A model generated the notes under the pieces. That model was given only the letters and a program-made list of their open reading frames with translations. It ran no database searches and was not told the DNA's origin. 7,041 bases of DNA from IMG/VR virus record IMGVR_UViG_2534682175_000009. One strand, written 5' to 3'. The DNA comes from a virus. Its lineage: Duplodnaviria; Heunggongvirae; Uroviricota; Caudoviricetes. The translations under genes and the position numbers were made by a program. Below, in pieces: positions 2,350 through 7,041 of this stretch (the first letter of the stretch is position 1; every line of letters begins with the position of its first letter).

Positions 2350-2360
2350 GTGGGGTGAAT

Positions 2361-5300
2361 ATGGCAGTAAAGATTTCAGGTGTACTGAAAGACGGCACAG
2401 GAAAACCAGTACAGAACTGCACAATCCAGCTGAAAGCAAAACGTAACAGCACCACGGTGGTGGTGAACACGCTGGCCTCAGAAAATCCGGATGAAGCCGG
2501 GCGTTACAGCATGGACGTTGAGTACGGTCAGTACAGCGTTATTCTGTTGGTGGAAGGATTCCCGCCGTCACATGCCGGGACCATCACCGTGTATGAAGAT
2601 TCTCAACCCGGTACGCTGAATGATTTTCTCGGTGCCATGACGGAGGATGATGCCCGTCCGGAGGCACTGCGCCGTTTTGAACTGATGGTGGAAGAGGTGG
2701 CGCGTAACGCGTCCGTAGTGGCACAGAACACGGCAGCCGCGAAGAAGTCAGCCGGCGATGCCAGCACATCTGCCCGTGAGGCGGCAACCCATGCGACTGA
2801 TGCTGCAGATTCAGCACGTGCAGCCAGCACGTCAGCCGGACAGGCCGCTTCGTCGGCTCAGTCAGCGTCTTCCAGCGCAGGAACGGCATCAACAAAGGCC
2901 ACTGAAGCCTCAAAAAGTGCTGCCGCTGCAGAGTCCTCAAAAAGCGTGGCAGCTACCAGTGCCGGTGCCGCGAAAACGTCAGAAACGAATGCTGCAGCGT
3001 CACAACAATCAGCAGCCACTTCTGCATCCACCGCGACTACGAAAGCGTCAGAAGCTGCCACCTCAGCCCGGGATGCGTCGGCTTCAAAAGAGGCGGCAAA
3101 ATCATCAGAAACGAACGCATCCTCGAGCGCCAGTAGCGCAGCTTCCTCGGCAACGGCGGCAGCAAATTCCGCGAAGGCGGCAAAAACGTCCGAGACGAAC
3201 GCCAGGTCTTCTGAGACGGCAGCGGGACAGAGCGCCTCAGCTGCGGCAGGCTCAAAAACAGCGGCTGCGTCGTCTGCCAGTGCCGCGTCAACAAGTGCCG
3301 GGCAGGCCTCAGCCAGTGCCACCGCCGCCGGAAAATCGGCAGAAAGCGCCGCATCATCCGCTTCAACAGCCACAACGAAGGCTGGCGAAGCCACTGAGCA
3401 GGCCACGGCAGCAGCGAGGTCAGCTTCCGCAGCGAAGACATCCGAAACGAACGCGAAAGCGTCGGAAACCAGCGCAGAATCCTCAAAAACGGCAGCGGCA
3501 TCGTCCGCCAGTTCGGCGGCGTCATCGGCCTCATCGGCGTCTGCTTCAAAAGATGAGGCGACCAGACAAGCGTCAGCAGCGAAGGGCAGCGCCACGACGG
3601 CATCCACGAAGGCAACAGAGGCTGCTGGCAGTGCGACGGCGGCAGCACAGAGCAAGAGTACGGCAGAATCCGCAGCAACGCGCGCCGAGACAGCAGCAAA
3701 ACGGGCAGAGGATATTGCATCCGCTGTGGCGCTTGAGGATGCGAGCACGACGAAAAAGGGGATAGTACAGCTCAGTAGTGCGACTAACAGCACTTCCGAG
3801 TCACTGGCGGCAACACCAAAAGCCGTTAAGGCCGCGTATGACCTGGCTAACGGGAAATACACCGCACAGGATGCAACGACAGCACAGAAAGGGATAATCC
3901 AGCTAAGCAGCGCGACCAACAGCACGTCTGAAACGCTGGCGGCAACGCCAAAGGCAGTAAAAGCAGCCAATGACAATGCTGAGAAACGTCTGCAGAAAGA
4001 TCAGAACGGTGCGGATATCCCTGGCAAAGACACCTTTACGAAAAATATTGGTGCCTGCCGTGCCTTTGGTGGGTCAGTAAGCACAACAACAGGAAACTGG
4101 ACGACTGCACAGTTTATCGAGTGGCTGGATTCTCAGGGAGCATTTAACCATCCCTACTGGATGTGCAAGGGTTCCTGGTCTTATGGCAATAATAAAATCA
4201 TTACTGATACTGACTGCGGTAATATTCATCTCGCCGGAGCTGTCATTGAAGTAATGGGGATAAAGTCAGCGATGACGATCCGCATTACCACTCCGACCAC
4301 CTCCACTGGTGGTGGAACAACTAACGCCCAGTTTACCTATATTAATCACGGAACAGATTATTCACCTGGCTGGCGAAGGGACTATAACTCCAGAAATAAG
4401 CCAACGGCATCAGAGATCGGGGCGTTACCGTCAGGTGGAACAGCAGTATCATCAGTTAATCTGTCTTCAAAAGGTCGGGTAACCGCGCTGACAGACAATA
4501 CGCAGGGGGCAACAGGTCTTGAGTTATACGAGGTGTATAACAACGGATATCCAACAGCGTATGGAAATATCATTCACCTGAAAGGGATGACAGCCGTTGG
4601 CGAAGGTGAGTTACTCATCGGCTGGAGTGGTACAAGCGGTGCTCATGCTCCGGCATTTATTCGTTCACGACGGGATACGACCGACGCAAACTGGTCGCCG
4701 TGGGCGCAGCTTTACACCTCGGCTCATCCTCCTGCAGAGTTTTATCCAGTCGGTGCACCAATCCCGTGGCCATCAGATAACGTTCCGTCTGGTTATGCCC
4801 TGATGCAGGGGCAGACTTTTGACAAATCTGCATACCCGAAACTTGCAGCCGCTTATCCGTCAGGCGTGATCCCTGATATGCGTAGCTGGACGATTAAGGG
4901 CAAGCCTGCCAGTGGTCGGGCCGTATTGTCTCAGGAACAGGACGGCATTAAATCGCACACCCACAGCGCCAGCGTATCCAGTACGGATTTGGGGACGAAA
5001 ACCACATCGTCGTTTGATTACGGCACTAAATCCACGAATAACACCGGGGCGCATACGCACAGTGTGAGCGGTACAGCCGCAAGTGCCGGAAACCATACTC
5101 ATAGTGTCACAGGCGCATCAGCAGTCAGCCAGTGGTCACAAAATGGGTCAGTACATAAGGTTGTGTCTGCGGCCAGTGTGAATACAAGTGCTGCAGGAGC
5201 GCACACTCATAGTGTCAGCGGCACAGCTGCATCTGCAGGTGCTCACGCACATACTGTCGGTATTGGTGCTCATACGCACTCTGTTTCGATTGGCTCACAT

Positions 5301-5387
5301 GGACACACCATCACCGTTAACGCTGCGGGTAACGCGGAAAACACCGTCAAAAACATCGCATTTAACTACATTGTGAGGCTTGCATAA
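2361..5387 (+). CDS. stf: Side tail fibre protein Stf, intact full-length, mosaic
   Basis: The ORF track opens at GTG 2355, but the ATG at 2361 gives [26 protein letters not shown]..., the lambda Stf N-terminus as I recall it, and GGGGTG upstream serves as ribosome-binding site. The C-terminus (...[37 protein letters not shown]...[31 protein letters not shown]) also matches my recollection of lambda Stf. The middle part differs. Stop TAA 5385-5387. Confidence 0.92.
2740..3740 (+). repeat. Ala/Ser/Thr-rich degenerate repeat region encoding the Stf shaft
   Basis: About 330 codons made almost entirely of A/S/T/K/E/G with recurring motifs: AAKTSETNA three times (about nt 2967, 3176, 3430) plus [11 protein letters not shown], and TSAGQAS/SAAS blocks. 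The low complexity leaves two other frames stop-free here, one sense and one antisense. Confidence 0.8.
3756..3833 (+). repeat. Conserved tail-fibre linker motif, copy 1 ([26 protein letters not shown])
   Basis: Read directly from the stf translation. This motif is, to my knowledge, a conserved block shared among otherwise unrelated phage tail fibre genes. Confidence 0.75.
3888..3965 (+). repeat. Conserved tail-fibre linker motif, copy 2 ([26 protein letters not shown])
   Basis: Second copy 44 codons downstream of the first. The protein is nearly identical (one conservative I/V change and one S/T change), but the DNA differs at many third-codon positions (e.g. GTACAGCTCAGTAGTGCGACT vs ATCCAGCTAAGCAGCGCGACC). 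Confidence 0.75.
4950..5310 (+). repeat. His-x-His repeat array in the Stf C-terminal tip
   Basis: Recurring HxH motifs in Gly/Ser/Ala/Thr context: [73 protein letters not shown]. The sub-repeats are imperfect at the DNA level. Confidence 0.8.
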
Positions 5388-5971
5388 TGGCATTCAGAAT
5401 GAGTGAACAACCACGGACCATAAAAATTTATAATCTGCTGGCCGGAACTAATGAATTTATTGGTGAAGGTGATGCATATATTCCGCCTCATACAGGTCTG
5501 CCAGCAAACAGTACCGATATTGCACCGCCAGATATTCCGGCAGGCTTCGTGGCTGTTTTCAACAGTGATGAGGCATCGTGGCATCTCGTTGAAGACCATC
5601 GGGGTAAAACGGTTTATGACGTAGCGTCAGGGGACGCGTTATTTATTTCTGAACTCGGTCCGTTACCGGAAAATGTTACCTGGTTATCGCCGGAAGGGGA
5701 GTTTCAGAAGTGGAACGGCACAGCCTGGGTGAAAGATGCAGAAGCAGAAAAACTGTTCCGGATCCGGGAGGCGGAAGAAACAAAAAACAGCCTGATGCAG
5801 GTAGCCAGTGAGCATATAGCGCCACTTCAGGATGCTGTAGATCTGGAGATCGCAACGGAGGAAGAAACCTCATTGCTGGAAGCCTGGAAAAAATATCGGG
5901 TGTTGCTGAACCGTGTTAATACAACAACTGCACCGGATATTGAATGGCCAACAGTACCCATTATCGAATAG
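5387..5971 (+). CDS. tfa: Tail fibre assembly protein (chaperone) Tfa
   Basis: 194 codons. ATG 5387-5389 overlaps the stf TAA by one base (TAATG), and the GAGG 8-11 nt upstream can act as Shine-Dalgarno. The translation ([78 protein letters not shown]...) matches my recollection of lambda Tfa. Stop TAG 5969-5971. Confidence 0.92.
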
Positions 5972-5982
5972 TGCATTACGAA

Positions 5983-6015
5983 CTGCAGGATATTATATGG
6001 GATAATATTCTGCAG
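5983..6015. repeat. Inverted repeat between convergent genes; candidate terminator for the late tail transcript
   Basis: CTGCAGGATATTAT (5983-5996) and ATAATATTCTGCAG (6002-6015) pair at 13 of 14 positions around a 5-nt spacer ATGGG. On the + strand it is followed by TTTATT. On the - strand the following sequence is not T-rich, so it is a weaker terminator for the cargo gene. It sits exactly at the G+C composition break. Confidence 0.4.
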
Positions 6016-6044
6016 TTTATTGGGGCTGTATTTTAAAAAGGTGT

Positions 6045-7041
6045 TTATTTTGAGTGAATTATCACCTTGTTTTTTCCGGTTCTTTTGGCTTGATATAACG
6101 CTTTATCGGCATTGACTAACATTTCAGATGGGCTGAGATTATTCTCTTTTGAAGTAAAGCAACCAATACTGACAGTTATTTTCTCAGGTCCATGCGATAA
6201 TAATTTTTCCGAGCATTGCTCTTCAATGTTTTTTCTGATTCGCTCTGCAATTGATAGCAAGAGCTTTTGAGTATTACCTTTAATGATAATACCGAACTCC
6301 TCACCGCCTAAGCGCCCTAATATATCCTCTTTCCTGATGGATTTTTTTATTATTCTGGTAACCATTACTATGACTTGATCACCCATATGATGCCCCCATT
6401 TGTCATTGATGCTTTTGAAACTGTCAATATCTAACATTATTACTGAGAAATCATGGTGTTTTGATATATTCTTCAATGAGTCAATAAAGTATCTTCTATT
6501 GTATGTATTCGTTAGTGGATCATGAATTGCCATATGATTAGCATGATTTAATTTCCTGAAAATATAATACATGAGTGTTGAAATGATATAAATCATTGAT
6601 ATCAATTCAAGAAATTTTGTCATGTACCATGCAGGATGGGATTTATCAATAAAATACAATAAAATTAGATTATTGCATACTGACACTATACTAATAAGTA
6701 TTATACACAACCATATTTTTGAGTAATTACGTATGCTGATGCATGAGCTGATAAGTAATACAAGCCAAAATACTGATATTATTTTGGTGTACACGATATT
6801 CCACGTCGGCAAATGACGATTCAGCGAGTATTGTATAATATTAAGACTATATTTTATATTGTCACTGCTTAGATTTTTTGCTACAAACGGAGTAATAAAA
6901 AGAATTAATATTGACAAAACAACAATTATTATGTTTCTTTTATCTTCTAAAACACTTTTATTTTTAACATTGGTGGAATAAACAGCCAGAAAGATTATAG
7001 ATATAAAGCTGAACTGACGGAATAGATAATATATTGCGATA
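6045..7041 (-). CDS. Multi-pass membrane protein with C-terminal GGDEF domain (predicted diguanylate cyclase); N-terminus beyond window
   Basis: The - strand translation has hallmark GGDEF-domain motifs: DIDSFKSINDKWGHHMGD (metal/substrate-binding region), the active-site motif RLGGEEFGI (nt 6294-6308), and an RxxD inhibitory-site motif (RKED) exactly five residues upstream of GGEEF. Preceding it are at least three hydrophobic helices (IISVFWLVLLISSCISI, IWLCIILISIVSV, FLELISMIYIISTLMYYIF). The ORF track starts at TTG 6917, but the same frame has no stop up to base 7041 and encodes more hydrophobic sequence (...FSFISIIFLAVYS...), so the gene probably starts outside the window. Stop TAA on the - strand at 6045-6047. 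Strongly AT-rich, unlike the tail genes. Confidence 0.85.
   Translation of the reverse strand, partial: IAIYYLFRQFSFISIIFLAVYSTNVKNKSVLEDKRNIIIVVLSILILFITPFVAKNLSSDNIKYSLNIIQYSLNRHLPTWNIVYTKIISVFWLVLLISSCISIRNYSKIWLCIILISIVSVCNNLILLYFIDKSHPAWYMTKFLELISMIYIISTLMYYIFRKLNHANHMAIHDPLTNTYNRRYFIDSLKNISKHHDFSVIMLDIDSFKSINDKWGHHMGDQVIVMVTRIIKKSIRKEDILGRLGGEEFGIIIKGNTQKLLLSIAERIRKNIEEQCSEKLLSHGPEKITVSIGCFTSKENNLSPSEMLVNADKALYQAKRTGKNKVIIHSK

Follow-up and report, generated by a model that had tools for sequence, protein, structure and literature searches.

The window, by which we mean the whole stretch of 7,041 nucleotides that was analysed, ends in a leftward reading frame lying directly beside the tail fibre genes of a lambdoid phage (Table 1). 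On the minus strand, 7040 to 6045 translates into 331 sense codons closed by a stop, and the frame is uninterrupted as far as the edge; according to the full-length gene of E. coli SE11, these are 331 of 443 codons, and the other 112 lie past base 7041. A 290-amino-acid open reading frame with a TTG start at 6917 was rejected as an artefact of the listing of edge ORFs, the frame being open to the window edge. The window ends inside the gene, and the N-terminus was read from other genomes, not from the window copy. In the matching genomes (SE11 and 12 others) the full-length gene is annotated as a sensor diguanylate cyclase of 443 amino acids.

The initial annotation had pointed out that this gene is convergent with tfa and very different from the tail genes in base composition, and both observations hold: the spacer between the two genes is 73 bp, and the GC content of the dgcX part is 0.31, as against 0.48-0.55 in J, lom, stf and tfa. 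The 3' end of tfa is also where homology to K-12 Rac and lambda breaks off. Inside tfa, towards the 3' end of its coding sequence, there is a match of 225.9 bits at 5730-5928 (+) to IS009 (RF02111), an Rfam family and candidate small RNA. The neighbouring stf (2355-5387, +) contains a long Ala/Ser/Thr-rich low-complexity stretch, which generates long spurious antisense ORFs, and carries His-x-His repeats in the vicinity of its C-terminus. It is unlike the stf of every complete genome searched, and it is because of this difference that the window as a whole finds no better identity than 97.3% among these genomes.

Table 1. Features of the dgcX locus (positions in the window unless another locus is given)
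Feature	Position	Strand	Basis or remark
tfa, tail fibre assembly	5387..5971	+	Pfam Caudo_TAP; last backbone gene before the cassette
Left-edge hairpin, 17-bp stem	5980..6018	.	Folding energy; between tfa and dgcX
dgcX, 3' three quarters	6045..7041	-	Codons 113-443; runs past the window edge
dgcX stop codon	6045-6047	-
GGDEF catalytic domain	6066..6530	-	Pfam PF00990, E 1.9e-44; TIGR00254; matches to PleD, DosC and WspR
GGEEF active-site motif	6294..6308	-	Residues 357-361 of the full protein
RKED, putative RxxD inhibitory (I) site	6324..6335	-	Residues 348-351; five residues before GGEEF
MASE4 membrane domain, C-terminal part	6555..7040	-	Pfam PF17158; helices 4-8 of 8
Right-edge hairpin, AACCGCAGCACGT-N11-ACGTGCTGCGGTT	L001 16736-16772		GC-rich 13- to 14-bp stem

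Identity with DgcX and architecture of the protein

Judged by its sequence, the gene in the window encodes DgcX, a diguanylate cyclase of E. coli that has been described before. The fragment shows 0/996 nucleotide differences from the SE11 gene, which lies left of uspF-ompN and which Richter et al. (2014) named dgcX (PMC4287979), so that the gene was already known; from the O104:H4 allele it differs at 8/996 nucleotides. The segment 5900-7041 is 100% identical in 13 complete E. coli genomes, SE11 included. The initial annotation had raised DgcX as an uncertain possibility, and this proves right: its observation is correct, and a rediscovery. Richter and colleagues also described copies at the lambda attachment locus of O104:H4, EAEC (55989) and ETEC strains, noted the GGEEF and RxxD motifs, recognized an eight-helix N-terminal domain common to YcdT and YeaI, and found expression of dgcX::lacZ to exceed that of every other E. 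coli diguanylate cyclase gene (PMC4287979). In a 2023 study, overexpression of DgcX led to csgD-independent cellulose, the GGEAF and GGAAF mutants had no effect, E359A/E360A mutants lost the phenotype, and deletion of dgcX in strain Fec101 had a minor effect only (PMC10459773). The E359/E360 numbering used there agrees with the protein described here. In the DgcX literature searched, no measurement of c-di-GMP for this protein came to light.

The prediction that the gene encodes an intact diguanylate cyclase with an inhibitory site, fused to a multi-pass membrane domain, is borne out by the domain searches and by structure prediction. The GGDEF domain is complete (residues 171-325 of the fragment, Pfam) and resembles PleD, DosC and WspR both in sequence and in fold. 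The GG(D/E)EF signature of active enzymes is intact in the form GGEEF, and the metal- and substrate-binding residues D316, N324, D333, R355 and K431 are invariant in the family, as are R348 and D351 of the RxxD motif in the family alignment; DgcX is accordingly placed, by its motifs, among the predicted active and product-inhibited cyclases. In the membrane part, PF17158 matches the window fragment with E 3.2e-23 and 82.8 bits, over the C-terminal two thirds of MASE4, and the full protein with E 9.3e-36 and 123.8 bits, the curated cut-off being 28.4. The AlphaFold model of DgcX (mean pLDDT 77.5) has eight membrane helices, in agreement with hydropathy, and five of the eight fall inside the window; the model also places a small beta hairpin in the loop that joins helices 5 and 6, and the long last helix runs into the GGDEF fold. 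A fold search with DgcX returned matches to GGDEF only, with no solved structure covering the MASE4 part. Among diverged dgcX alleles, dN/dS is 0.1-0.2 in MASE4 and in GGDEF alike, which shows both domains to be under purifying selection.

The dgcX cassette and its attachment sites

The gene lies in a cassette of about 1.7 kb with a GC content of 0.30 and a hairpin at each edge, a segment of 1679 bp that stands in place of pinR-ynaE-ynaM of K-12 Rac. The left-edge hairpin has a folding energy of -26.6 kcal/mol (z -5.7) on the plus strand and -16 kcal/mol (z -5.9) on the minus strand, and is probably a two-way terminator between the convergent tfa and dgcX. The 70 nucleotides 3' of the dgcX stop codon are also common to a relative linked to the nfr genes (see below). 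Past base 7041, the related loci contain the remaining 336 nt of dgcX, a promoter region of about 260 nt, a terminator-like hairpin and the att arm. This right-edge hairpin (-25.8 kcal/mol, z -5.6, with a U-rich tail on the minus strand) is present in all canonical dgcX loci, where it probably keeps leftward transcripts from reading through towards the dgcX promoter. Further copies stand in K-12 Rac and, between ea47 and ea31, in the b region of lambda (24162-24199), so the hairpin may delimit modules in lambdoid phages. Its identification with lambda sib/tI was rejected, as it is a separate hairpin and sib/tI lies nearer the core. The best promoter-like site, TTGACA-17-TAGTAT at about 70 nt upstream of the ATG, is a candidate only; promoter-like sites are no more numerous than in shuffled sequence. 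We infer the exact promoter and the terminator function of the hairpins.

The initial annotation had placed the gene in the lambda b-region position of a phage, and had named as the alternative an ordinary host gene beside the attachment site; the mapping of the att sites in O104:H4, SE11 and AL.H8 upholds the former. At the O104:H4 locus, the lambda core GCTTTTTTATACTAA occurs exactly twice and bounds a lambdoid prophage of 44.6 kb. The int and xis genes stand at one end; at the other, dgcX is found 641 bp inside the core, separated from it by DNA that matches lambda in its sib/tI region and P arm. The large terminase gene of this prophage is frameshifted, and the prophage may be defective. 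In SE11, dgcX is separated from uspF by a Rac arm and by the ttcC core, inside which it lies at a distance of about 490 bp. In AL.H8, K-12 sequence is joined at CTTTAGGTGAAAAAGGTT beside torT, which we take to be the HK022 site, and dgcX lies inside this HK022-type junction. A fourth location is found in SFE8, where a 90% identical dgcX allele and a 96-nt remnant of tfa sit in an argW-dsdC element (L011 3900-5400), the location reported for dgcX in strain Fec101. The SFE8 element is of the KpLE1 type and decayed; dgcX has been kept while the surrounding phage decayed.

The junction of tfa with dgcX, present in all loci examined and placing dgcX directly beside lambdoid tail fibre genes, is the same at four chromosomal locations and in every case lies inside the att core, which shows dgcX to be part of the phage genome. 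It is true phage cargo, located in the b-region slot and inside the right-hand attachment site. A reading of dgcX as host chromosomal DNA that flanks the prophage end and is mobile only via specialised transduction could draw upon the description of the gene as adjacent to prophage DNA and 'hitchhiking' by specialised transduction (Richter et al., 2014; PMC4287979), and also upon a 68% identical chromosomal relative located about 300 bp from argU, which would fit an ancient capture of host flank. However, host flanks would vary from site to site, whereas the junction is constant at all four, and phage arm and core lie outside dgcX in three att systems; for the present-day gene this reading is already contradicted, and we consider it very improbable. 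Our mapping rather refines the hitchhiking idea. As for a moron, dgcX lies inside the att boundaries, has an atypical GC content and brings its own promoter and terminator, the promoter activity being published (PMC4287979), its exact site a candidate and the putative terminators hairpin-based.

A further suggestion had been that the cyclase belongs to a larger anti-phage defence or signalling module with partner genes past base 7041. Defence genes are common among the accessory genes near the ends of prophages, and c-di-GMP controls surface glycans used by phages, such as the Nfr glycan of phage N4; both would be in keeping with such a module. Against this, at none of the three sites does a gene intervene between dgcX and the att core, PADLOC gave no match, and no PilZ, EAL or HD-GYP gene is adjacent, so that neither a known defence model nor a linked partner gene is to be seen there. 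With no gene before the core and no PADLOC match, the idea of a partner module is not supported, and we give it next to no likelihood.

Distribution and relatives of dgcX

Among complete E. coli genomes, dgcX is found in about 14% (in 768/5426, 80% or more of the 5900-7041 query is present). By its junction, the gene could be assigned mostly to lambda attB, in 585 genomes, and to the Rac site in 8 and torT in 3, counts that cover these three sites. The allele identical to that of the window occurs at both lambda attB and the Rac site. Neither dgcX nor a full-length relative was found in 50,697 phage genome records, searched as DNA and as protein, the protein search giving GGDEF-domain matches only, at no more than 40% identity and often from doubtful records; the phage records thus document no packaging or transfer of dgcX by an active phage. 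A 2.5-kb contig (L026) of a metagenome-assembled genome labelled 'Bacillota' carries dgcX together with the upstream hairpin, and is almost certainly E. coli contamination.

Full-length relatives of DgcX come only from genomes labelled E. coli and from Citrobacter, where the relative sits in the cdgI position beside dgcJ. The 68% identical MASE4-GGDEF gene mentioned above (L014 7001-8335; also L013, L015 and L024) is chromosomal and directly downstream of nfrB-nfrA-ybcH, a c-di-GMP-activated glycan synthase needed by phage N4, and the nearby argU is a tRNA-Arg(TCT) gene and a lambdoid integration site. It belongs to a divergent Escherichia lineage, with flanking DNA about 91% identical to that of E. 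coli. It may be from this nfr-linked gene that dgcX derives; a direct repeat of argU origin, which would mark an island remnant, was looked for on either side of the nfr-linked gene and not found. A second relative, 51% identical (L016 7001-8341), occupies the right end of a Rac-type prophage and is flanked by two copies of the Rac att arm (8435-8670 and 5513-6028), an arrangement that resembles what is left of a second, tandemly integrated prophage. Both the 68% and the 51% relatives are absent from complete RefSeq E. coli genomes.

Proposed function and comparison with known systems

Based on these results, dgcX is very probably a known accessory diguanylate cyclase gene that occupies, as a self-contained cassette with its own promoter, gene and terminator, the non-essential b-region slot of lambda-like prophages, from tfa to the att arm. 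In the mechanism that we propose, the eight membrane helices of MASE4 would be followed by a helical stalk and then by a cytoplasmic GGDEF domain, the dimer would make c-di-GMP from two GTP, and binding of the product at RKED would limit the output. In the lysogen, integration would separate dgcX from the early promoters of the phage, and the strong leftward terminator predicted just upstream would insulate it; cut off and insulated in this way, the gene would be transcribed from its own promoter. The extra c-di-GMP would then raise the matrix (cellulose, and curli in some strains) and so alter the biofilm behaviour of the lysogen. A signal sensed by MASE4, and a benefit that the phage draws from dgcX, are likewise what we infer. 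A more far-reaching proposal is that dgcX was captured from the MASE4 cyclase linked to nfrBA-ybcH and argU and serves as a phage-benefiting factor of lysogenic conversion, whose strong output would remodel the surface polysaccharides of the lysogen (cellulose, PGA, Nfr glycan) and so alter how susceptible the lysogen is to other phages, N4 among them; we regard this as unlikely.

For enteroaggregative E. coli and the O104:H4 outbreak strain, it has been proposed that DgcX increases c-di-GMP and biofilm matrix; for this reason DgcX matters for colonisation and virulence, as has been known since 2014. What we add is modest, namely the status of dgcX as att-bounded prophage cargo and its prevalence among complete E. 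coli genomes. Since the gene lies inside the att sites, ordinary lysogeny, and not rare specialised transduction, can explain its spread.

Compared with the published DgcX of O104:H4, EAEC 55989, ETEC and SE11, the gene in the window is the same, matching in the length of 443 amino acids, GGEEF, the I-site and the tfa neighbour; the loci show no difference of substance, although the neighbouring stf of the window differs. In E. coli K-12, DgcT (YcdT) and CdgI (YeaI) share the MASE4-GGDEF architecture and the conserved MASE4 residues, but are only 34-37% identical to DgcX, have a GC content of 0.39 as compared to 0.30, and are chromosomal, DgcT beside pga and CdgI beside dgcJ; moreover, the active site of CdgI is degenerate (EGEVF), unlike the GGEEF of DgcX. 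In lambda, the slot that dgcX takes, from tfa to attP, is filled by ea47, ea31 and ea59, which are encoded leftward as dgcX is, yet their proteins are unrelated to DgcX, and dgcX stands there as a single low-GC cassette.
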